A DNA stretch of 64,000 nucleotides from an uncultured Erysipelotrichaceae bacterium (GTDB lineage: Bacteria; Bacillota_I; Bacilli_A; Erysipelotrichales; Erysipelotrichaceae): contig CAMNFS010000001.1 of NCBI GenBank assembly GCA_946537255.1, positions 31,713 through 95,712 of the forward strand. The letters are read 5' to 3'. Below the pieces are notes generated by a model. It saw only the letters and a program-made list of their open reading frames with translations. It did no database searches and was not told where the DNA came from. Position 1 is the first letter of the stretch; every line of letters starts with the position of its first letter. A program made the translations under genes and the position numbers. Positions 39,091 to 51,328 of the stretch are shown here, piece after piece.

Positions 39091-39158
39091 ATCTGTTTTC
39101 CCTTTCACGAAGTCAGAAATCAACCCAATCATGTAATAACCATATATAATAAACTTGT

Positions 39159-41333
39159 ATGAAATTTTTCTCGGGGAAGATCAGTAAATTTTCTAAAAAA
39201 TTCAGGAATATCGCGTTTTTTATCGTGATCGCTCTGTGCATCAATCTGATCTGCAACCGGATTGCGGTTTTTCTGAATCTGCCCATCTATCTGGACGCGG
39301 TCGGAACCATTCTTATTTCGGTTGTAAGCGGCCCTGTGCCGGGCGTGATTGTCGGTTTTCTGACCAATTTCATCAATGCCGTGAATGATATCAATAATGC
39401 CTATTACGGCGTCATCAATGTCATCATTGCGATTACAGCCTGGTACTATTCCACCATCAACTGCTACAGAACTCTGCCGAAGGCGATTCTGACCGCCCTG
39501 CCAATGGCGCTCATCGCCGGCACCTACAGTGCCTTTCTGACATTCTGTCTCAACGGCTTCGGGTATGCGGATGAAATCTCCACAGCGGCAGGCACTGGTT
39601 TTTTTGCGCAGAATCACCTTCTGGATTTCTCCAGTTCCCTGTTTCATGAGCTGACTGTGGATCTTGGCGACAAGCTGATCAGCGTCATTCTGGTTTTCTT
39701 CCTGATGAAGCTGATCTCCGCCCGCTGGAAGGAAGAACTGAAGTTCTACGACTGGAAACAGAAGCCGCTCTCTGAGCAGGAAATGAAGGACGCGGAACAA
39801 ACCATCCGGGCCGGCAGTTCCCTTCGCTCCAAGGTTGTTCATCTGATCATTATTGCGATGCTGTTTGTCGCCGCCATCACCATCGGCATCTCCTACCGTC
39901 TGTATGAGCGGGCAAGTTATTCGGAACATATTACGCTCGGCAAAGGTGCCGCAACGCTGATCTCCACCATTGTGGATGGAGACCGGGTGGATGAATTCAT
40001 ACAGTTCGGGGAATACGCCCCCGGATACCGTTATACCAAGCAGCAGCTGGAAAGCATCCGGACGACCAATGACAATATTCTCTATGTCTATGTATACAAG
40101 ATCGATCCGGATGGATGTCATGTCGTATTCGATCTCGATACGCCCGACACACCCGGCGGAAAACCCGGTGATCTTGTGGAGTTTGATGAGGCATTTGTTC
40201 CCTATCTCAACGATCTGTTCGAAGGAAAGGAAATCGACCCGATTGAGTCCAACGAATCCTTCGGATGGCTGCTCACGGTATACAAGCCGATCCGCAATTC
40301 CCAGGGAAAGACAACCGCCTACGCATGTATTGATATTTCGATGGATGAGGTTACCGCAAATGAAGTCAGTTTCTTCGCGAAGGTTCTCTCCCTGTTCCTT
40401 GGCTTCTTCATCATGATCATCACCATCGGGATTACTCTTTCGGAATTCCATCTGATTCTGCCATTGAACACCATGGCAACTTCCGCGCACTCCTTCGCCT
40501 ACAATAATGAAGAAGAGCGTAAGAAAACCGTCAATAACTTCCGCAGTCTGGATATCAGCACCGAGGATGAAATCCAGAACCTGTATACCGCCTTTTCCCT
40601 GACGATTGAAGATACGGTCCGTTATATCGCCAATGTTGAGCGTACAACCAGTGAACTCAACAGGATGCAGAACGGGCTCATCATGGTGCTGGCGGACATG
40701 GTGGAAAGCCGGGATGAGTGTACCGGTGATCATGTCAGAAAGACCGCCCAGTACTGCCGGATCATCCTTGATCAGCTCAAGAAAAACGGCTGGTATACGG
40801 ATCAGCTCTCGGACGCGTTTATCGAGGACGTCGTGAATTCCGCTCCGCTCCACGATGTCGGAAAAATCAAGGTCAGCGATACCATCCTCAACAAGCCGGG
40901 CAAGCTCACGGATGAAGAGTTTGAAATCATGAAAACACATACCACTGCCGGCAAGGAAATCATCCGGCAGGCCATGGCAATGGTCAGCACGGACAGCGGT
41001 TATCTCAGGGAAGCGATGAATCTTGCGGCCTATCATCATGAGAAATGGAACGGCAAGGGATATCCAAACGGTCTTTCCGGTGAAGAGATTCCTCTTTCCG
41101 CAAGAGTCATGGCGGTCGCGGATGTATTCGATGCCCTCGTTTCCGAACGCAGCTACAAGAAACCATTCAGCTTCGAGCAGGCATGTGACATTATCAAAAA
41201 GGATGCCGGAACGCATTTCGATCCGAAGATTGCGGAAGCGTTCCTGCAGGTCAAGGACAAAGCCCGCAGGATTGCCGAGGCAAATCTTGGAACCTCCCTG
41301 CCAAGTGAATATCAGATCGACGAAAAAGCCTGA
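39159..41333 (+). CDS. HD-GYP domain c-di-GMP phosphodiesterase with polytopic membrane and extracytoplasmic sensor modules
   Basis: The C-terminal HD-GYP motifs are present (HDVGK ... HHEKWNGKGYPNGL). About 6 N-terminal TM helices are followed by a roughly 190-aa loop domain and a further TM. Length is 724 aa. Confidence 0.9.
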   Translation: MKFFSGKISKFSKKFRNIAFFIVIALCINLICNRIAVFLNLPIYLDAVGTILISVVSGPVPGVIVGFLTNFINAVNDINNAYYGVINVIIAITAWYYSTINCYRTLPKAILTALPMALIAGTYSAFLTFCLNGFGYADEISTAAGTGFFAQNHLLDFSSSLFHELTVDLGDKLISVILVFFLMKLISARWKEELKFYDWKQKPLSEQEMKDAEQTIRAGSSLRSKVVHLIIIAMLFVAAITIGISYRLYERASYSEHITLGKGAATLISTIVDGDRVDEFIQFGEYAPGYRYTKQQLESIRTTNDNILYVYVYKIDPDGCHVVFDLDTPDTPGGKPGDLVEFDEAFVPYLNDLFEGKEIDPIESNESFGWLLTVYKPIRNSQGKTTAYACIDISMDEVTANEVSFFAKVLSLFLGFFIMIITIGITLSEFHLILPLNTMATSAHSFAYNNEEERKKTVNNFRSLDISTEDEIQNLYTAFSLTIEDTVRYIANVERTTSELNRMQNGLIMVLADMVESRDECTGDHVRKTAQYCRIILDQLKKNGWYTDQLSDAFIEDVVNSAPLHDVGKIKVSDTILNKPGKLTDEEFEIMKTHTTAGKEIIRQAMAMVSTDSGYLREAMNLAAYHHEKWNGKGYPNGLSGEEIPLSARVMAVADVFDALVSERSYKKPFSFEQACDIIKKDAGTHFDPKIAEAFLQVKDKARRIAEANLGTSLPSEYQIDEKA

Positions 41334-42064: not shown

Positions 42065-42177
42065 ACAACTCCCTTCTTTACCGGTATTCATTGTAACCGC
42101 AGACGATCTCCTGCTCAAGCAGAAGATCAACGCATTGTTTCACGGCTTCCGCGCAGAAAGAAAAACAGCTGATTCCT

Positions 42178-43144
42178 TCAAAGGAATACCTCAAGCTGTT
42201 TCATTGCCATTGTGGCATACGCCCCCATCGGCAGAAAGAAGGAAACGGTCAGCACGGCTTTTCCTGGATGGAACACATCTTCCTCACAGCCAAGAAAATT
42301 GATGTTCGTCGTTACCAGAAGCTTGCGCGGTACCTCCTGTTCAAGCGTATGAACCCGGAATGAACCGATCCTTTCCTCCGGAAAATCCTCCTGCAGAAGC
42401 GCTGCCATAGTCTTTTTTTCCTTCATCTTCTATAGGTATGATGGGCCCGTTCTGTTGCAGAATATTCCCGAGCCGCTGGTTGAAGTCTGCGGCGTAAAGC
42501 GCGGAATCATAGAATCCCCTTACCCGGGCATCAATCTGATCGAAAAACTTCTCATAATCTCCGTCAAACGGAAGAACTGCTTCTCTGGTTCCTGATTCCA
42601 GAAGATATTCATACGCCTTCCGATAGTCTTTATGGAAAAGTGCTTCACCGATCAGATGAGTCTGTTTCTTGTATCCGGATTTGCCAACCCGCTGCTTGTC
42701 AAAGTAGTTCGGGAAAACAAGCGTGTAGATCTGCTTATGGAGTCAGCTTTCCGCCTTTGCCCGATCCAACCCCCGCAGACGCAGCCGGAAGACATTCCCT
42801 TCCAGCCGGGCCGGCTTCAAAGGCTCCTTGATATAGCCAAGAAATGTCAGATGGATGAAACGGTCCGCTTCGGTGTGTTCCAAATTGAACGCGTCGATCC
42901 GCTTCAGATTGTCCCGGTACTGTACCGGGATACTGACCTTCTGGGAGGTGATGCCGTCACTGTCCTTCAGTCCGGCCCTTCCATCTGGCTGATACCAAAC
43001 CAGGATTCCGCTGTCTTCATGGCATCGAAGGTAGAGAATCCTTTCTTTTCAAGTCCCAGAAGGATAATCCTCTGCCGTGTGTTCTGTTACAAGCACCTCC
43101 TGAACAATGAAATCCTCCGGAATGTACTTAATGATGATTCTGAA
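42178..43144 (-). pseudogene. truD: tRNA pseudouridine(13) synthase TruD, disrupted
   Basis: Minus-strand translation across three frames gives IIKYIPEDFIVQEVL, ILLGLEKKGFSTFDAMKTAESWFGISQMEG, AGLKDSDGITSQKVSI, VFPNYFDKQRVG and SFFLPMGAYATMAMKQL. There is no ATG, at least 3 frameshifts, and an in-frame TGA at 42743-42745. Only an 82-aa tail ORF survives. Confidence 0.75.
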
Positions 43145-46100
43145 TTACCCTTCCTGATCGGACCTGTTTCTCTCTGCAAGAGAGGCAATGGTAGCATACA
43201 GTTTATCCGGCTCAACCGGTTTGGAAAGATGGGCGTTCATACCCGCCTCCAGGGATCTTTCCACATCCTCATCAAACACGTTGGCGGTCATGGCAATAAT
43301 CGGAATGGTCTTTGCGTCAGGCCGTTCCAGAGCCCGGATTGCCCTGGTAGCAGAAAGACCGTCCATCACCGGCATCCTGACATCCATGAGAATGACGTTA
43401 TAATAACCGGCCGGCTTTTTGGAAAACATCTGTACGGCAATCTGTCCGTTCTCCGCGTGTTCCGTTTCAATATCTTCAAGCGAAAGCAGATCTTCCAGAA
43501 TTTCCGCGTTCTGTTCGACATCCTCTGCCATCAGCACTCTGAGTCCGGCAAGATCCGTTCCGCTTTCCTTTGTATCCGCGGTGTCGGTCTCGATGATTCC
43601 CTTCTTCTTCTGCAGGACATGCTGAATCTCCCGCATCAGGGTATCAGTAAACAGCGGCTTCGCCAGAATACCGTCAACCCCTTCCATTTTCGCTTCGTTC
43701 TCAATGACATTCCAGCTGTATCCCGTCAGCATGATCACAGCCGGATCATTCCCGGCGCAGGCGCGGATGGCTCTTGTCACATCCAGTCCATCCTTTTCCG
43801 GCATCCTGTAATCGGTGAGGATCAGCTGATATGGATGATCCGTATCCGCGGCGGCCTTGATCCTTTCAACTGCCCGATTCGGATTCTGTTCGGTATCCGC
43901 TTCAATGCCAAGGCTCTTCAGCACGACCTGAGCGTGCTCTCGCGCAATCTCATCATCATCGATGACAATCGCCCGAAGATTCTCCGGCAGTACGATACCG
44001 TTTTCTGCCTGGTAGGTACGGTCACTTTCCTTGAGGGCAACCGTCACAGTGAAGGTCGTTCCGACTCCTTTTTCACTTTCTACGGAAATAGTCCCGTTCA
44101 TCATTTCCACAAAGTTCTTTGTGATCGCCATGCCAAGACCGCTTCCTCCATACTTGTTGGTAGAAGTCGCGTCCTCCTGGGAAAAGGCCTCGAAAATCTT
44201 CGGAATAAATTCCTTGTCCATGCCGATTCCTGTATCCGCCATCCGAAACCGCATGGTTCCCAATCCATCCTGACTGCTGATCTGCTCCACGGTAAGCGTG
44301 ACCAGTCCCGGTGCCTCGGTGAATTTGACGGAGTTGCCCAGGATATTGATCAGCACCTGCTTCAGCTTCATGTCATCTCCGCAGTAGTAGTCACAGACAT
44401 GGCCGATGATATTGCATTCATAGTGCAGTCCCTTATCCTGACACTGCCCGTTGATCATGATATTGATCTGATCCAGAAACTCCCGGAAGGAGAATTCCTC
44501 ATTCTTCAGAACCATCCGTCCGGATTCAATCCGGCTCATATCCAGAATGTCATTGATCAAGCCAAGCAGATGCTTCGCGCTGGCTCCGATCTTTTCCAGA
44601 TGTTCCCTTGTGCGCGGCGACAGATCCGGATCTCTCAGGGCTATGTTGTCCAGGCCGATGATCGCGTTCATCGGGGTTCTGATCTCATGGCTCATATTGG
44701 AAAGAAAGCTGGTCTTGGCCCGGCTGCTCTCTTCCGCCAGAGCCTTTTCAATCTCGGTCTGCTTTTCCCGCTTCTGCATCTGATTGTAGATATCAAACAG
44801 CAGTGCCAGAGCTATGACAACCAGGGCGGTCTGAATCAGTACACTGATCCCCAGCGTACGATTGATTTCACTCAGAACATCCCGGAGATACATGACCGCA
44901 GGTCTTGTCGCGGTACTTGTCACATCAATTCCTGCCGCTTCCAGCTGGCCGGTATAGTATTCCTGAATCGGGGTTACAGAACTTTCCACAGCCGACTCCG
45001 CCGTCTGACGCATCCAGACACTGGAGGTAAAGATAATCAGGCCAAGCAGAACCACCCAGGCAACAATCGAATGCCCAAGCCGCCTCTGCTTGTCGTTATG
45101 CATGATATGGCGGAACAGGAAAAGTCCGAGAATTCCCCACGCCGCAAGAATCAGATAGGATTCCGTGGAAAGCGTTTTGACGGAAATGATATTCGGAACC
45201 AGAAATTCCAGAGCGAAAAGAATCGAGAAAAACTGGCCGGCAAATCCGCAGACAGAGGCGGTGCTGTTCTTTTCCTTTCTGGCAAGACGATAGGTGCAGG
45301 CACTGGCAAACGCGTACGCAATCGTCGCTCCGACCGTGGTGACATCTACAATCCAGCTGATCGCGGTGCGTCCGAAAAAAGGAAGAATCACAGAAATGCC
45401 GAGAATCAGAAAGATTGCCTTGCGGGGAACAAAATGCTCATCCAGTTCACCGATCCACTCCGGCAGCATCCCATCCATGGACAGTGTCGCAAGCAGCCGG
45501 CTCAGGGCAATGTAATTGCCGATAAGACCGGTGAAAATCGCGCAGAGCGCAATCACTCCAAGCAGGATCGGGCCAGCGCTTCCCATAGCGGTCTGTACCG
45601 CGTAGAAGGTCGGAACAGATGCTGTACCGCTGTACTGATCCAGATGAAAGATATAATCCATCCACGATCCGCAGCCCTCCGGGAAAGCGGTCGCCGCCAG
45701 TAGAGAAAGCAGAATATAGGCAATCGCCCCGGTGATTACCGCGGCAGAAAGAATTCCGAATGATTTCTTCAGGGGAAAAGCCGCTTCACTGGAAGAATGC
45801 GAAATGGATTCAAATCCGACAAAGGCCCAGGGAGCCAGGGCAAAAACCGTAAAGATCCCTTCCCCGGCGGAATGTCCCGGTACAAAGGCCGGCTGAAATC
45901 CATTGACAGCACCGGGATTTCCAAGCGCGCCGACAAAGCAGACAATGATGCCGAAGAAAAGAAAAACCGCCATGATCACCTGAATCCGTTCAGAGATCTT
46001 TCGGTGAAGGCAGAACAGCGCAGAAACAACCAGGGAAACAACAGCCAGCAGGATTTCTCCCATGTATACATGAAAACCGGCAATCACATAATGAAAGCCA

Positions 46101-46492
46101 AACTGAAAGACATTGCCGAGCACCGCCCTGGCTATGAGCGGAAGCGCTGTTGCATTCGCCCAGATAATCGCGATATATGTCAGAGTCAGAAACCACGCAA
46201 TCAGGAATCCATGGTCATATCCGAACACATTCTTGGTATAGGTATAGGTTCCTCCCCCGTCCTGAAAGCGGTTCATCAGGAAATGAAAATTGACCGCCAG
46301 CACCAGCATGACCAGTGCTCCCAGAGTAATTCCGATCAGCGTTCCGATCGGCCCGGCAACCGGCAGGAAGGTCGTTCCGGGCATCACAAAAGATCCCCAT
46401 CCGACACTGCACCCAAAGGCAAGCGCCCATGCGCCCGGTACAGTTAAATAGGCAAACTCCCGACGAAGTCCCGGCCCGTTATTCTGACTCAT
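43145..46492 (-). CDS. Hybrid sensor histidine kinase with N-terminal APC-superfamily amino-acid-permease domain and two receiver domains
   Basis: About 470 N-terminal aa have APC hallmarks (GSFVMPG...[38 protein letters not shown]) and at least 12 TM helices. The kinase core has the H-box [19 protein letters not shown] and GGSGLGM. There are two REC domains ([11 protein letters not shown]; [11 protein letters not shown]). SD GGGGAGAAAG lies before ATG 46492. Confidence 0.9.
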
Positions 46493-46526: not shown

Positions 46527-46895
46527 TTATGCTCCTTCGTACTGACGGATTCCATCCACTGCTTTCTGATACAGTTTCTCTATTTCCGCAAGCTTCTCAC
46601 GGACCATTTCATCACTCATGGAGCGGGCATTGCCAGGCCGGTATTCCTCAGCAATTTCCGAAGCCGCATCGGCGATTTTCACAAGACCCAGATTGGCACA
46701 GACTCCCTTCGCTGCATGAGCGGTTTCAAACAGCTGTGTGGGATCCATGGTTTTTCCCGCTTCCAGAAGAGAGGCAACCACCCCGTTTTTCACAAGTTTG
46801 CGGATATGCTTGTCAATCAGTTTTTCCACCATGAGCACATGGATGGCCCGTTCATAATCGCCGTCGATCAGCTGATACAGTTCCTGAAGTGTCAT
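46527..46895 (-). CDS. Stand-alone Hpt (histidine phosphotransfer) protein
   Basis: 122 aa, helical, with the Hpt motif [13 protein letters not shown]. Its ATG overlaps the upstream stop codon (ATGA). Confidence 0.85.
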
Positions 46896-48598
46896 ATGGT
46901 TCTTTCCTTTCTCGCAATCCCGATTTCCTTTTCAATCAGTTCCTCCATCTGTTCCGGAGGCACCGGTTTTGAAAAGTAAAACCCCTGCACAATATCACAG
47001 CCGCTGTCCTTCAGCAGCGTCAGCTGGCCCTTCGTCTCAACGCCTTCCGCAACTACCTTCAGACTCAGATTGGAGGCAATGTCGAGAATCAGTTTCACCA
47101 GTCGGAAACTCGTCTGGCTTGACTCAATATGCCGGACAAACTTCATATCCATTTTAAGCACATCCAAGGGCATTTCGGAAAGCATGTTCAGGGAAGAATA
47201 TCCGGATCCGAAATCATCCATTTCAATATCAAAACCAAGATCACGGAGTTTTCCAAGCACCTCCATGACATGTTTCGCGTTTTCCGTATAGGCACTTTCC
47301 GTCAGTTCCAGTTTCAGCTCCCGGTATTCGAGCTGATTCTCCTTGATCAAAAGATCCAGACGTTCCACAAGATTCTTGTCATAGAAATCCGCCCGGGAAA
47401 GGTTGATCGAGACCGGAAGGGAAAACTGAAACTTCTTTTTCCACGCCGCGATCTGGCGGGAAGCGCATTCCCATACATAGTGATCAACGACCGAAATCAG
47501 ACCGTTCCCTTCAAACAGCGGAATGAACTGACCGGGTGAAATCATGCCGAGTTCCGGATGTTTCCAGCGGATCAGAGCCTCCGCGCTGGAAAGTCTCGGA
47601 GGATCGCACTGAATGTCATATTTGGGCTGATAGTATACCGTAAACTGCTTTTCATCCACCGCGGCCCGAAGATCATTGAGGAGTCTTTGATTCAGCAGTT
47701 CCCGCCGCCGCAGCTCTTCATCATAAATCATCAGCGGATTCTGAAAATTGCCCCGCACCAGGTTGCAGGCGGCTTTGGCCCTGTCAAACATCACGACCGG
47801 CTCCACATCCTCGCCTGCAGGGTTGACACCCATGCGGAGATGCACGCTGACATCCGGTGAAAACGCGTTGATTTCCTCCTGAAACTGGTGCAGCAGCGCC
47901 TGATAGTCTTCCTGCGGCTGACAGTAGATTTCAAAGCGGTCCGCTTCCGCCCGGCAGGCAATTCCCTTCTGACTTTTCAGGAAATCCTGAATGATGGATC
48001 CAAGCATCCGCAGCACCCGGTCTCCGAATTCCCGGCCATGCAGGGCATTGACGGAATGAAACTGCTCCACATTCAGAACCAGCGCATCCATGCCCTTATC
48101 CGAACGGTAGCGGTAAAGCTGTTCCACATATTCGAAAAAGAAACTGCGGGTAAGAAGTCCCGTAAGCCGGTCATGCTCAGCAGCGTTGATCAGCTGTCTG
48201 CCTTCACTCAGTTCAATGATTCTTGCGACCCGGGCAAGAATGACTTCATGCATGTCAAACGGCTTGGTAATGAAATCCGCCGCGCCCATCTGCAGCGCCT
48301 TGAGCTCCGCATTCTTTTCAGCGGTAAGAACGATAAACGGAATCTGCCGCATCTGCTCATCCTTTTTCGCTCTTTCCAGAACTTCAAAGCCGTTGAGCTT
48401 CGGCATGATAAGATCGAGAAGAACAATCGAAAGATCATTCAGGCGTGCTTCAATCACCTGCATCGCCTCTTCGCCATCACACGCGTAAAGCACATCATAA
48501 TCATCTTCCAGGATAATACCGAGTGCATCACGGTTGATTTCCTGATCATCCACGACCAGTACCGTTCTGTGACGGGGAATGAATTTACTGTCTATCAT
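46892..48598 (-). CDS. Response regulator REC-GGDEF(degenerate)-EAL, predicted c-di-GMP phosphodiesterase
   Basis: The REC domain is present (VLVVDDQ...LLDLIMP...TKP). The GGDEF site reads RAEADRF. The EAL motifs are intact (EALIRW, ELTES, DDFGSGYSSL, LKMDMKFV, AEGVET, QGFYFSKP). I prefer the start MIDSKF at 48598. Confidence 0.9.
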   Translation of the reverse strand: MIDSKFIPRHRTVLVVDDQEINRDALGIILEDDYDVLYACDGEEAMQVIEARLNDLSIVLLDLIMPKLNGFEVLERAKKDEQMRQIPFIVLTAEKNAELKALQMGAADFITKPFDMHEVILARVARIIELSEGRQLINAAEHDRLTGLLTRSFFFEYVEQLYRYRSDKGMDALVLNVEQFHSVNALHGREFGDRVLRMLGSIIQDFLKSQKGIACRAEADRFEIYCQPQEDYQALLHQFQEEINAFSPDVSVHLRMGVNPAGEDVEPVVMFDRAKAACNLVRGNFQNPLMIYDEELRRRELLNQRLLNDLRAAVDEKQFTVYYQPKYDIQCDPPRLSSAEALIRWKHPELGMISPGQFIPLFEGNGLISVVDHYVWECASRQIAAWKKKFQFSLPVSINLSRADFYDKNLVERLDLLIKENQLEYRELKLELTESAYTENAKHVMEVLGKLRDLGFDIEMDDFGSGYSSLNMLSEMPLDVLKMDMKFVRHIESSQTSFRLVKLILDIASNLSLKVVAEGVETKGQLTLLKDSGCDIVQGFYFSKPVPPEQMEELIEKEIGIARKERTI

Positions 48599-48620
48599 AA
48601 TCCTTCTGTTCCTTTCCAGA

Positions 48621-50108
48621 TCACGATGGCTGAAGCCACTTTCGAATCGTCGCATACAGGAGTTCAGCGTCCGCCGGCTTGCCCAGATGTTCATTCATGC
48701 CGGCTTCCTTTGTCTGTTTTTTATCACTTTCAAAGGAATTGGCAGTCAGGGCAATAATCGGCACAGTTTTCGCATCAGGCCGGTCCAGTGCCCGGATCCT
48801 GCGGGTTGCCTCAAGGCCGTCCATAACCGGCATGCGAAGATCCATCAGAATCACATCGTAGTAGCCAACGGAAGAATTCCGGAACATCTCAACCGCAATC
48901 TGTCCGTTTTCCGCGTGTTCGCTCTCAGCGTCTTCCAGTTCCAGAAGATCCGCTACGATTTCCGCGTTTTCTTTTACATCCTCTGCAATCAGAATCCGGC
49001 GTCCGGCAAGGCTCACTTCCATCACAGGCTCCGGTATCCGCTCTATTTTAATTCTTTTTACAGGAACTGTCACAGCGAACTCGGTACCCTCATTTTTCCT
49101 GCTGGAAACTTCAATGGTACCTCCCATCCGCTCCACCATGTTTTTGGAAACGGCAAGGCTCAGACCACTGCCTCCATAGCGATCCGTCGCGCTGTCATCC
49201 TCACGGGCAAAAGGATCATAGATATGGGGAAGAAACTCAGGATCAATTCCGATTCCATTGTCACTGATGACAAATTTCAGCACTGCCTGATCATCCGTGC
49301 AGCTGTCACATGAAGCGGTAAAGCGAACCATTCCGCCAGGTGGTGTATATTTCACCGCGTTATCAAGAATGGATAAGAGCACCTGCTTCAGCTGAATCTC
49401 ATCCCCGAGGTATTCTCCTTCCGCATCCGGTTCCAGTCTGCTTTCATAATGGACCCCTTTTTCCTCACTGACTGTATTCGTGATGACATTGACCTGATCC
49501 ACTGCATCCTTCAGCTGAAAGGACTCGCTTCGACCCGACGGTTCCTCGGCATTGAGCTCGTTCATTTTCAGAATATTATCGATAAGTCCGACCATGTGTC
49601 TGGCACTGTGGCCGATCTTTTCCAGGGCCTCCTGTGTTTCCGGAGGGTTTTCCGGGTTTTTAAGAGCCAGACCGTCAAGCCCCAGAATCACATTCATCGG
49701 GGTCCGCATTTCATGACTCATGGTCGCAAGAAACCGTTCCTTGGTTTTCCGCGACTGTTCCGAAGCCATCAGTTCCGCCTCCAGACGCTCATTTTCCATG
49801 ATGTGCTTGGTCACTTCGTCGAGCATCCGGTACATGACAAAAACAAAGATGCTTCCGCCGAAGAGAATCCCGGCAACGATGAGATCAGGATGTCCGAACA
49901 GCCCGACCAAGATATAACCGATGAGAAAAAGAATCAGAAGAATAATCGGCAGACGCAGGATCCGCTCCATTTTCTGCTGTTCTTTATTTTTCTGAACCAC
50001 CTTTGAAAAACGCATGAATCCCCAGATGTTGTAAACCATCAGAACCGAACCGGCAAATATCATTGCCATAACAAGAACTTTCAAAGGATTGTCCTCCTTT
50101 TCGATCAT
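48621..50108 (-). CDS. Hybrid sensor histidine kinase (3-TM membrane sensor, HisKA-HATPase-REC)
   Basis: It has three N-terminal TM helices with minimal loops, the H-box SHEMRTPMNVILG, DNGIGI, GGSGLSL, and a C-terminal REC (LMDLRMPVMDG). Confidence 0.9.
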   Translation of the reverse strand: MIEKEDNPLKVLVMAMIFAGSVLMVYNIWGFMRFSKVVQKNKEQQKMERILRLPIILLILFLIGYILVGLFGHPDLIVAGILFGGSIFVFVMYRMLDEVTKHIMENERLEAELMASEQSRKTKERFLATMSHEMRTPMNVILGLDGLALKNPENPPETQEALEKIGHSARHMVGLIDNILKMNELNAEEPSGRSESFQLKDAVDQVNVITNTVSEEKGVHYESRLEPDAEGEYLGDEIQLKQVLLSILDNAVKYTPPGGMVRFTASCDSCTDDQAVLKFVISDNGIGIDPEFLPHIYDPFAREDDSATDRYGGSGLSLAVSKNMVERMGGTIEVSSRKNEGTEFAVTVPVKRIKIERIPEPVMEVSLAGRRILIAEDVKENAEIVADLLELEDAESEHAENGQIAVEMFRNSSVGYYDVILMDLRMPVMDGLEATRRIRALDRPDAKTVPIIALTANSFESDKKQTKEAGMNEHLGKPADAELLYATIRKWLQPS

Positions 50109-50234
50109 CAGAAACGATTTGCTGCCTGAGAATGAATATGCCTGATATCTTTATTATACTTGACCTTTTGACAGCGTACAGGCACAATTCCTGACAGTCA
50201 TCCGGAAATAAAAGAAAAAGGATCCCGGAAGAAT

Positions 50235-51143
50235 TTACTTCTTATAGGATCCAATACTGTTTTTCCCGCTTTTCTTGACGGAATAGAGCGCTTGGTCCGC
50301 CTTTTCCACAAGGCCGGAGATATCCAGAACATCATTGACCTCATGGATATCGGCAAAACCAATGCTTACCGTGATATCACAGCCGAGCTTTTTTCCTTCC
50401 GCTCCGATTCTTCCAGCCAGATGCTTTAAGCGGTTGTACACCCGCTGTCTTGATCCGGGAAGAATCCCAACAAATTCATCTCCGCCCCAGCGGCAGACCT
50501 GATGTTCATACCGCACCGCCGCAACCAGGCACTCCGCTACCATCTGAAGGACCTGATCGCCGGTATTATGTCCCTTCTCATCATTGATGGCCTTGAAGTT
50601 ATCCACATCCAGAATAAAGAGAGAAGCCTCCTGATAGTCCCGCTTCATATAGTGCTGATGCCACCAGAGGATAAAACTTTCCCGGTTATAGAGGCCGGTG
50701 AGGCGGTCACGGCTTGCCTGCTGAAGCTCACGCCACAGTCTTGTCCGCATCAAAGAGTCGGCATATACCAGCATGACACAGTCCGCTTCATCCTCTCCGG
50801 CGGCCGGAATCATCAGTTCATCTCCATCCCTGAGACTTACCTTCTCATCAGGCTGAAGAAACCGCCCTTCAAACTGAATGCCGTTGGTTGTCGAAGACGC
50901 GGTGAAAACGGTTTTTTTCTCATCTGTGTCAAAGCATCCGTGATTTCTGGATACGAAGCGGTTGACAACGGTAATCTGTGGATTATCCGCACTTCCGGCC
51001 CGGCCGAAAACCTGATGCCCCTTCAATGGAAATTCCGTGATGTTTCTTCCGCTGCATATGAAAAGCACCGGATCACACGCTTCATACAGTTTCCGGGCAT
51101 TTTCATCCCACTTCACATTCAGAACGGTTGTGGTTTCCTCCAT
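50235..51143 (-). CDS. FHA-domain diguanylate cyclase (FHA-GGDEF)
   Basis: It has an FHA core (VFGRAGSADNPQITVVNRFVSRNHGCF...NGIQFEG) and an active-looking GGDEF (RWGGDEFVGI, DVDNFKAINDEKGH). SD AAGGAG lies 6 nt before ATG 51143. Confidence 0.85.
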   Translation of the reverse strand: MEETTTVLNVKWDENARKLYEACDPVLFICSGRNITEFPLKGHQVFGRAGSADNPQITVVNRFVSRNHGCFDTDEKKTVFTASSTTNGIQFEGRFLQPDEKVSLRDGDELMIPAAGEDEADCVMLVYADSLMRTRLWRELQQASRDRLTGLYNRESFILWWHQHYMKRDYQEASLFILDVDNFKAINDEKGHNTGDQVLQMVAECLVAAVRYEHQVCRWGGDEFVGILPGSRQRVYNRLKHLAGRIGAEGKKLGCDITVSIGFADIHEVNDVLDISGLVEKADQALYSVKKSGKNSIGSYKK

Positions 51144-51328
51144 CAAAGACTCCTTATTCCAGTGAATGCCAGACCTTTGTGATTCTCTGCATTCCTTTTG
51201 TTTTCTTTTTAGGATTTGAATTATATCATCCCACCACATGATTTTCCGCCAAGAATTTGTATTATTGCGGAAAAGAGTACTTTTCTTTTCGCTTCTGCTG
51301 TTCTTTCCCGCAGAAGCTGACCGGCTTC

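Follow-up and report, generated by a model that had tools for sequence, protein, structure and literature searches.

A four-gene cassette with an APC-transporter-type hybrid kinase: a probable branched phosphorelay onto a c-di-GMP phosphodiesterase in bacteria of the ruminant gut

The question raised by the locus described here is whether two hybrid histidine kinases, a stand-alone histidine phosphotransfer protein (Hpt) and a response regulator encoded side by side act as one relay, and whether this relay ends in hydrolysis of cyclic di-GMP (c-di-GMP), a second messenger. The genes lie in a DNA stretch of 64,000 nucleotides (the window) from an uncultured Erysipelotrichaceae bacterium (assembly GCA_946537255.1, contig CAMNFS010000001.1, positions 31,713 to 95,712 of the forward strand); unless a locus number is given, positions are those of the window. 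The cassette comprises HK1, a hybrid kinase with a small membrane sensor; PDE, a response regulator composed of a receiver (REC), a degenerate GGDEF domain (GGDEF*) and an EAL phosphodiesterase domain; Hpt; and HK2, a hybrid kinase fused to an APC-type permease. Judged from sequence, the products of these four genes probably form one branched multistep phosphorelay through which the activity of a c-di-GMP phosphodiesterase is set. From the evidence given below we infer the route and direction of phosphotransfer, the nature of the ligand and the way in which phosphorylation would act on the EAL domain.

A preliminary description of the locus had reported four tightly packed genes on one strand. 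This was borne out, all open reading frames (ORFs), Pfam domains and junctions being present (Table 1). Between the stop codon of HK1 (TGA, 48623-48621) and the ATG of PDE at 48598 lie 22 nt; the PDE stop and the Hpt start share the sequence ATGA; the Hpt stop (TAA, 46529-46527) is separated by 34 nt from the HK2 ATG at 46492, and the gap contains a GGGGAG ribosome-binding site. The ATGA overlap and the 34-nt gap had both been stated in the preliminary description and can be read in the DNA. The range 46527-50108 given there covers HK1, PDE and Hpt, while the fourth gene, HK2, falls outside it.

Table 1. Genes of the cassette and the region 5' of it
Feature	Position	Strand	Size and composition	Basis
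HK1, hybrid histidine kinase	48621..50108	minus	495 aa; three-transmembrane-helix sensor, HisKA, HATPase_c, REC	ORF, Pfam
PDE, REC-GGDEF*(EADRF)-EAL response regulator	46892..48598	minus	568 aa	ORF, Pfam, start codon, public gene calls
Hpt, stand-alone histidine phosphotransfer protein	46527..46895	minus	122 aa	Pfam, AlphaFold2 (AF2), Foldseek
HK2, APC-permease hybrid kinase with REC1 and REC2	43145..46492	minus	1115 aa	Pfam, AF2
Intergenic region 5' of HK1	50109..50234	minus	126 nt	Promoter and terminator scans, DNA reading

Domains of the four proteins were called with Pfam, every match lying above the gathering score. In HK1, the matches are HisKA (54 bits), HATPase_c (98.7) and Response_reg (82.8), and direct reading of the N-terminus gives three close-set hydrophobic helices that leave almost no loop outside, so that the reported hybrid kinase with a sensor of three transmembrane (TM) helices stands. 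The phospho-acceptors are His132 (HisKA) and Asp423 (REC). The H-box, the N and G boxes and the receiver Asp, Thr and Lys are kept in 49 HK1 sequences, and the motif GSxLMVYNIYGF of TM1 is conserved among the 49 orthologues. Both HK1 and HK2 possess the complete set of hybrid-kinase features: the H-box His, the N, G1 and G2 boxes and a receiver acidic pocket with Asp, Thr and Lys. Translation of HK1 may truly start at TTG 50084 instead of ATG 50108, since AAGGAGG is found 7 nt upstream of this codon and the N-termini of the orthologues align there.

HK2 consists, in this order, of an APC/LeuT-fold domain of 12 TM helices, two extra TM helices, HisKA, HATPase_c, REC1 and REC2. The APC-fused hybrid kinase of the preliminary description was confirmed by Pfam (AA_permease_2 78.7 bits, HisKA 67, HATPase_c 95.6, two Response_reg domains 137 jointly; the second APC profile, AA_permease, reaches 60.8 bits, and both APC profiles are above their cut-offs) and by fold comparison. 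The AF2 model (pLDDT 83.8, pTM 0.84) contains a complete APC/LeuT-fold transporter, and the best Foldseek matches of the sensor are BasC, AdiC, GkApcT and y+LAT1, which are 15-20% identical to it and have target-normalised TM-scores between 0.76 and 0.81. A sequence search of the PDB with the APC domain gave nothing at E-values up to 0.001. In the model, the two extra TM helices flank a short low-confidence segment, which is probably extracellular, and then enter the DHp domain. The phospho-acceptors are His602 (HisKA), Asp894 (REC1) and Asp1037 (REC2); the H-box, the ATP-binding boxes and all receiver aspartates are kept in 40 HK2 sequences. An alternative HK2 reading frame of 1136 aa is used by public gene calls, but it is disfavoured by the ribosome-binding site and the N-termini of orthologues. 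Neither a STAC domain nor an SSF/SLC5 domain was found in HK2 by Pfam, which sets it apart from the SLC5-STAC kinases.

More than 2,500 homologues of the APC sensor domain exist, and the 120 best-scoring ones are nearly all kinase fusions. NCBI, where it names them, calls them only 'amino acid permease', and JGI uses 'histidine kinase/L-asparagine transporter-like permease'. Two stretches, VGWGSFVMP in TM1 (containing GxG) and PWAxVGFES in TM6 (W-x-x-x-G-F-E-S), are invariant in 44 APC-domain homologues; by comparison with AdiC and ApcT, we take them to match the unwound segments in which APC transporters bind their substrate. Their invariance argues for a ligand site retained in HK2. The DHp domain (44513-44725, residues 590-660) has a median pairwise identity of 91.5% among 40 genomes with labels spanning several phyla, which on these alignments is unusually strong for a kinase dimerisation domain.

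A retained ligand site raises the alternative that the APC domain is mainly a working transporter, transport itself being the signal while the rest of the protein reports or regulates the flux; a variant of it supposes that the kinases are mainly phosphatases which drain PDE through Hpt when the ligand is present. The 12-helix core with its two extra helices in the model and the invariant TM1 and TM6 motifs agree with a working transporter, and LuxN and LuxQ are precedents for a ligand-induced phosphatase mode. CbrA is a further precedent, being a kinase that also transports (PMC13488458, PMC7096432). We consider this alternative distinctly improbable as the principal description. It refines the relay rather than contradicting it, and binding and transport are not distinguished by the present results.

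The small protein between PDE and HK2 scores 29.0 bits with the Pfam family PF01627, for which the gathering score is 24.6, and carries the motif HAAKG with the phospho-acceptor His60. The same family is precomputed for nearly all of 120 listed homologues. The AF2 model has a pLDDT of 96.5, and every one of its 16 best Foldseek matches in the PDB is an Hpt protein or domain, the highest TM-score being 0.79; they include HptB (7c1i) and Shewanella 3myf (TM-scores 0.75-0.79), ArcB, BarA, Chaetomium HPt, AHP1 and Ypd1. The stand-alone Hpt with HAAKG named in the preliminary description was thus borne out by Pfam, AF2 and Foldseek: its fold is confirmed on the model, and its phosphotransfer function is predicted. 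A profile search of the PDB with the family put designer PPR repeats at the top, which are spurious matches, and gave HptB (E = 0.015) as the single relevant one. Across 19 homologues, H60, K63 and G64 do not vary. The family also possesses a second invariant histidine, H30, within an invariant DKHIRK (window 46806-46808), besides H60 of HAxKG. More than 900 homologues exist, and among species-representative genomes at least 236 stretches encode relatives; the 120 best-scoring ones are 66-75% identical (near-identical copies aside) and 121-127 aa long. The preliminary description had stated that Hpt-based relays are rarely described in Firmicutes. Rarity there agrees with the literature and with a 2015 census, in which hybrid kinases made up less than 1% of Firmicutes two-component proteins (PMC4558063), but not with the abundance in nature just given.

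For PDE, Pfam gives Response_reg (75.2 bits), GGDEF (53.6 bits, covering only positions 1-111 of the 161-position profile) and EAL (222.2 bits). The phospho-acceptor of the receiver is Asp62. At the place of the GGDEF motif stands EADRF (residues 218-222, in the context C-R-A-E-A-D-R-F), and SQKG replaces the RxxD I-site, so the features of an active cyclase are absent. All EAL motifs are present: EALIRW, N, ELTES, DDFGSGYSS, KMDMKF, AEGVET and QGFYFSKP. Throughout 48 PDE sequences, the window protein and 47 orthologues, the receiver DD/D/T/K residues and every EAL motif are conserved, including the Glu, Arg, Asn, ExxE, loop 6, KxD, EGVE and QG expected of an active enzyme, and the GGDEF is always degenerate, reading E[AGS]D[RQEH]F. 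The degenerate GGDEF and intact EAL of the preliminary description therefore recur in all these proteins. Since all orthologues share it, cyclase degeneracy is a property of the family, and PDE appears to be built to hydrolyse c-di-GMP, not to make it. A longer PDE reading frame of 600 aa (start 48694) was discarded; it begins within HK1, the ribosome-binding site and the N-termini of orthologues disfavour it, and the gene calls on sister contigs have 568 aa.

A degenerate GGDEF half with a partial Pfam match is also what would be seen if PDE, like LapD or FimX, were a receptor for c-di-GMP or a scaffold devoid of catalytic activity, and the LapD model of NCBIfam does match PDE weakly (111 bits against a cut-off of 1020). 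The best NCBIfam matches, though all below cut-off, are active phosphodiesterases or their models: DibA, PRK10060, DosP and PvrR; and every residue defining active EAL enzymes is kept in the 48 sequences. A dead enzyme is unlikely given the intact EAL motifs, and we hold the receptor explanation as a whole to be very improbable. PDE does not belong to the PvrR/RocR type, its score with the PvrR model NF052596 being 199 bits against a cut-off of 580. None of the four cassette proteins reaches the cut-off of any NCBIfam model, and Hpt has no match at all; hence there is no named equivalog for them.

Evidence on the wiring comes from the receivers. HK1 REC and HK2 REC2 share 69% identity; the kinase cores share 45%, and all other REC pairs 23-34%. 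APC-kinases with a single receiver keep the REC2 type, according to the consensus of 44 homologues. Near-identical terminal receivers of this kind fit two kinases sharing one Hpt, with the PDE receiver as a likely acceptor. PDE REC is the sole non-kinase receiver within the 64-kb window, in which no further REC, histidine kinase, Hpt, GGDEF or EAL gene was found except an upstream FHA-GGDEF gene. Segment conservation, taken as the median pairwise identity of cassette segments across hosts, is highest in the phosphotransfer modules: after the HK2 DHp follow HK2 REC2 (77%), PDE REC (70%), HK1 REC (67.5%), the APC domain (65%), HK2 REC1 (58%), the catalytic (CA) domain of HK1 (50%) and HK2 TM13-14 (46%). 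The wiring from two kinases through Hpt to REC-EAL, as put forward in the preliminary description, is supported by intact acceptor and EAL motifs, the lone non-kinase receiver, the linkage of the genes and the 69% receiver identity.

On this basis, the following course of events may be proposed. HK1, with its minimal sensor of three TM helices, and HK2, with its complete APC/LeuT-fold transporter body, would autophosphorylate on the H-box His. The signal for HK2 is likely to be an amino acid or a related solute that the APC domain binds and perhaps also transports. Phosphate would pass to the C-terminal receiver of the same kinase (Asp423 in HK1, Asp1037 of REC2 in HK2), and both receivers would be read by the single Hpt of 122 aa (His60), because neither kinase carries an Hpt domain of its own. 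Hpt would then phosphorylate Asp62 of REC-GGDEF*-EAL, changing and most likely raising the EAL activity, which would lower c-di-GMP. The degenerate GGDEF is unable to make c-di-GMP and is probably a lever or a nucleotide-sensing module between REC and EAL. HK2 REC1 could be an optional accessory receiver serving as a modulator or phosphate sink. Ligand-dependent reverse flow, with the kinase acting as a phosphatase, may also occur, as in other many-to-one relays.

Whether the genes belong together was examined by a scan anchored on Hpt with one genome per species, which gave at least 236 stretches with relatives; the best 80 loci were examined by mapping the domain segments of the window on all their ORFs and then counting neighbours. 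PDE, Hpt and the APC-kinase follow one another in this order in 45 of the 80 loci, and all four genes are present in 37. The most constant element is the pair of Hpt and APC-kinase (71/80); in the other nine the APC-kinase was undetected despite room downstream. No APC-kinase lies downstream of Hpt in L004, L037, L038, L052 and L063, of which four keep kinase-PDE-Hpt and L052 only PDE-Hpt. Kinase-PDE-Hpt without the APC-kinase is a minimal complete relay. Conversely, HK1 adjoins Hpt where PDE is absent (L008, L019, L042, L051, L071). A second scan, anchored on PDE in metagenome contigs and counting orthologues with an EAL at least 62% identical and with room downstream, found Hpt directly after PDE in 15 of 15 cases; more distant REC-GGDEF-EAL paralogues (44-59%) usually have no Hpt directly after them. 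As the arrangement is kept in dozens of genomes, it is far beyond chance.

The two kinds of APC-kinase are distributed differently: those with two receivers and those with one number 31 and 6 in loci with PDE and 9 and 13 in loci without it (raw counts, uncorrected for phylogeny and contig truncation). On a single metagenome contig (L162, 5971-8073), REC-GGDEF-EAL and Hpt form one in-frame ORF of 700 aa, which is either a natural Rosetta-stone fusion or an assembly error of 1 nt. Most of the 22 loci without PDE belong to a variant, here variant 2, composed of Hpt, an APC-kinase with one receiver, an SBP_bac_3-PAS-GGDEF protein and a PAS-kinase-REC-REC protein. In related loci around Hpt, namely L001 (13791-17810), downstream genes of L007, L011 and L013, and L077 (13275-16679), there are APC domains of this type fused directly to GGDEF or to GGDEF-REC-GGDEF-EAL and amino-acid-binding SBP_bac_3 domains joined to PAS-GGDEF. 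Such nearby fusions of SBP_bac_3 or APC domains to GGDEF or EAL point to amino-acid input and c-di-GMP output as a common theme.

Several observations weigh against a single relay ending at PDE. Hpt and the APC-kinase occur without this PDE in 22 of the 80 loci, and no stand-alone receiver was found near the variant-2 cassettes; as variant 2 has neither PDE nor a separate response regulator, Hpt must act on something else there and might do so here too. On this gene content, PDE is not in all genomes the sole output of Hpt. HK1 and PDE adjoin like a classical kinase-regulator pair, so direct transfer from HK1 to PDE may take place. The proposed scheme explains no role for HK2 REC1, and the APC domain, for which an amino acid or related solute is the predicted ligand, has low identity to solved transporters and no PDB sequence match. 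Neither a promoter nor a terminator is definable for the cassette. Phosphotransfer, PDE activity and co-transcription are themselves predictions made from sequence.

Taken together, part of these observations would suit two neighbouring systems, in which Hpt and the APC-kinase signal to a regulator encoded elsewhere and HK1 and PDE form a separate pair, either by direct transfer from DHp to REC or with PDE as a side branch or phosphate sink. The constancy of the Hpt-APC-kinase pair, its 22 occurrences without PDE, the position of HK1 directly upstream of PDE and the lack of a stand-alone receiver in variant-2 cassettes would all be expected then. However, the 15 orthologous PDEs that Hpt directly follows, the four loci that keep kinase-PDE-Hpt without an APC-kinase and the five in which HK1 stands beside Hpt without PDE speak against this, as do the 69% identity of the HK1 receiver to HK2 REC2 and the in-frame PDE-Hpt fusion. 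Besides, a hybrid kinase normally requires an Hpt to reach an external receiver. Two separate systems therefore seem rather unlikely, and the single branched relay is preferred.

The 80 loci come almost entirely from metagenome-assembled genomes (MAGs) of the ruminant gut. Cultured Hungate isolates among them that carry the module of Hpt and APC-kinase include Lachnospiraceae bacterium AC2029 (L008), AC2031 (L077), NE2001 (L066) and LC2019 (L072); the full version with PDE was seen in no cultured isolate among the 80. By the taxon labels of the MAG records, they belong to Lachnospiraceae, Ruminococcaceae/Oscillospiraceae, Christensenellales, Solobacterium, Coriobacteriaceae/Atopobiaceae/Eggerthellaceae and Flexilinea, that is to Clostridia, Erysipelotrichia, Coriobacteriia and Chloroflexota. 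The pairwise identities are star-like (median 68% for PDE and 65% for HK2) with no break at the phylum level; the Flexilinea PDE, for instance, is 78% identical to Ruminococcaceae copies. Over a range of 40-65%, the GC content of the cassette tracks that of its flanks and departs from it by a few percent. The best account of the star-like identity and this tracking is that the cassette was exchanged horizontally, and repeatedly, in the rumen and was then ameliorated while under strong purifying selection. PDE and HK2 of the window are nearest to 'Clostridiales' copies (69%) and less near to those of other Solobacterium MAGs, two of which (L037, L038) have kinase-PDE-Hpt without the APC-kinase. 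This suggests independent acquisitions of the cassette within one genus-level group.

The host itself can be placed by other genes of the window, which encode LepA, DnaG-RpoD, an aminoacyl-tRNA synthetase of class II and NrdD, the anaerobic ribonucleotide reductase; on account of these genes, the window is taken to be chromosomal and to come from an anaerobe. Its LepA clusters at 90% identity or more with proteins of Solobacterium sp. MAGs (Erysipelotrichaceae, Bacillota), and the Firmicutes setting assumed earlier was correct. Identical copies of the cassette are known only on metagenome contigs (ENA, JGI).

Upstream of HK1, the preliminary description had placed a TATAAT box at 50148-50153 and had read it as a dedicated operon promoter. 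The box truly lies at 50158-50153, the claimed position being off by 5 nt. The promoter did not hold up: it depends on the lone TATAAT, which is accompanied by neither a usable -35 hexamer nor a TG extension and is absent from the list produced by the promoter scan, where no convincing sigma-70 promoter was found at this site. By a terminator scan and folding of both flanks, an intrinsic terminator was found neither upstream of HK1 nor downstream of HK2. Scanning of the whole window with Rfam at gathering thresholds gave zero matches, hence neither a c-di-GMP riboswitch nor any other known RNA element takes part.

The gene upstream, 126 nt from HK1 with no terminator between, encodes an FHA-GGDEF protein of 334 aa with an intact RWGGDEF (50235-51239, minus strand). 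It adjoins the cassette in contigs of the same species only; its membership in the cassette was ruled out, as none of the 80 genome loci has an FHA-GGDEF relative in this neighbourhood. On the plus strand, a gene at 39159-41333 encodes an HD-GYP membrane protein of 724 aa with intact HDVGK ... HHEKWNGKGYP (Pfam HD_5, 114 bits), which is the third gene for a c-di-GMP enzyme in about 12 kb, along with FHA-GGDEF and REC-GGDEF*-EAL. The overlapping minus-strand ORF 39129-41216 (695 aa) has no Pfam match and is spurious. Immediately 3' of HK2, remnants of TruD (pseudouridine synthase D) form short broken frames (42130-43145, minus strand); sister-contig gene calls at this place are fragments of 122-136 aa, and the remnants appear to be a pseudogene common to the population.

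The general logic of many hybrid kinases, one Hpt and a REC-EAL output is not new and is established in Proteobacteria. In Vibrio, the hybrid kinases LuxN, LuxQ and CqsS, switched by ligands between kinase and phosphatase, signal through the small Hpt LuxU to LuxO. The cassette shares with this system the many-to-one input of hybrid kinases into one Hpt, and the LuxQ model of NCBIfam matches both window kinases, with 301 and 237 bits, which is far below its cut-off of 1200; the Lux output, however, is a sigma-54 activator and not a c-di-GMP enzyme. In Pseudomonas aeruginosa, hybrid kinases such as SagS converge on the stand-alone HptB, which acts on HsbR/HsbA and meets the cyclase HsbD (PMC5085249, PMC8543379). 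Here, too, several kinases lacking an Hpt domain feed one small Hpt with coupling to c-di-GMP, and HptB (7c1i) is both the top structural match of the window Hpt and its only Hpt sequence match (21% identity, E-value 0.015). Unlike PDE, the output of HptB is a REC-PP2C partner switch; the sensors are unrelated, and the hosts are Proteobacteria rather than Bacillota.

The terminus of the relay, a receiver fused to an EAL phosphodiesterase, has counterparts in RocS1/RocR and PvrS/PvrR of P. aeruginosa and VieS/VieA of Vibrio cholerae, where a His-Asp-His-Asp relay leads onto REC-EAL (PMC12051241, PMC3842833, PMC4352251). The Roc branch is fed by more than one kinase (PMC12051241, PMC3842833). 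In these systems the Hpt is part of an unorthodox kinase, whereas the window cassette has it as a separate gene, and their regulators are REC-EAL (VieA with an additional HTH) without the degenerate GGDEF of PDE. With its PvrR score so far below the cut-off, PDE is not an orthologue of PvrR. By description, PDE can be likened to the REC-GGDEF-EAL regulators RavR and PdeR. The available part of the source on RavR of Xanthomonas describes it as a GGDEF-EAL response regulator phosphorylated by the kinase RavS, whose EAL degrades c-di-GMP (PMC6707612); for RavR, that part mentions neither a stand-alone Hpt nor a transporter-type sensor.

The use of a complete solute-transporter fold as an N-terminal kinase sensor links HK2 to the SLC5-STAC kinases CbrA and CrbS and to the Amt-fused kinase of Kuenenia (PMC13488458, PMC7096432, PMC5764959); CbrA both senses and transports histidine (PMC13488458, PMC7096432). 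The fold is SLC5 or Amt there, whereas HK2 possesses an APC domain with two linking TM helices, no STAC and two receivers; the output is a transcription factor there, whereas c-di-GMP turnover through Hpt is proposed for HK2. The searchable literature yielded no paper on AA_permease-kinase fusions and none on this cassette in rumen bacteria; a sensor of APC type is undescribed in it, and so is the cross-phylum rumen cassette. It may tentatively be supposed, though with more doubt than confidence, that HK2 founds an uncharacterised family of prokaryotic APC-type amino-acid 'transceptors' with a dedicated Hpt, in which a full LeuT-fold permease that keeps its binding site would drive a hybrid kinase. 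This would be a rumen-restricted, horizontally exchanged amino-acid-to-c-di-GMP module under at least three phylum labels, its output being swappable between phosphodiesterase and cyclase-rich variants.

How strictly anaerobic bacteria of the gut and rumen choose between attached and free-living growth is poorly understood, and c-di-GMP signalling there is almost unexplored. The cassette represents a defined circuit with a plausible nutrient input (an amino acid or related solute) and c-di-GMP hydrolysis as the predicted output. Protein identities of 60-90% in MAGs labelled as several phyla suggest that selection on it in the ruminant gut is strong. Transporter-kinase fusions are still described as rare, the term 'rare transceptor' having been used for CbrA in 2026 (PMC13488458). 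A ligand for the APC sensor domain would add a sensor class and correct a widespread annotation gap.

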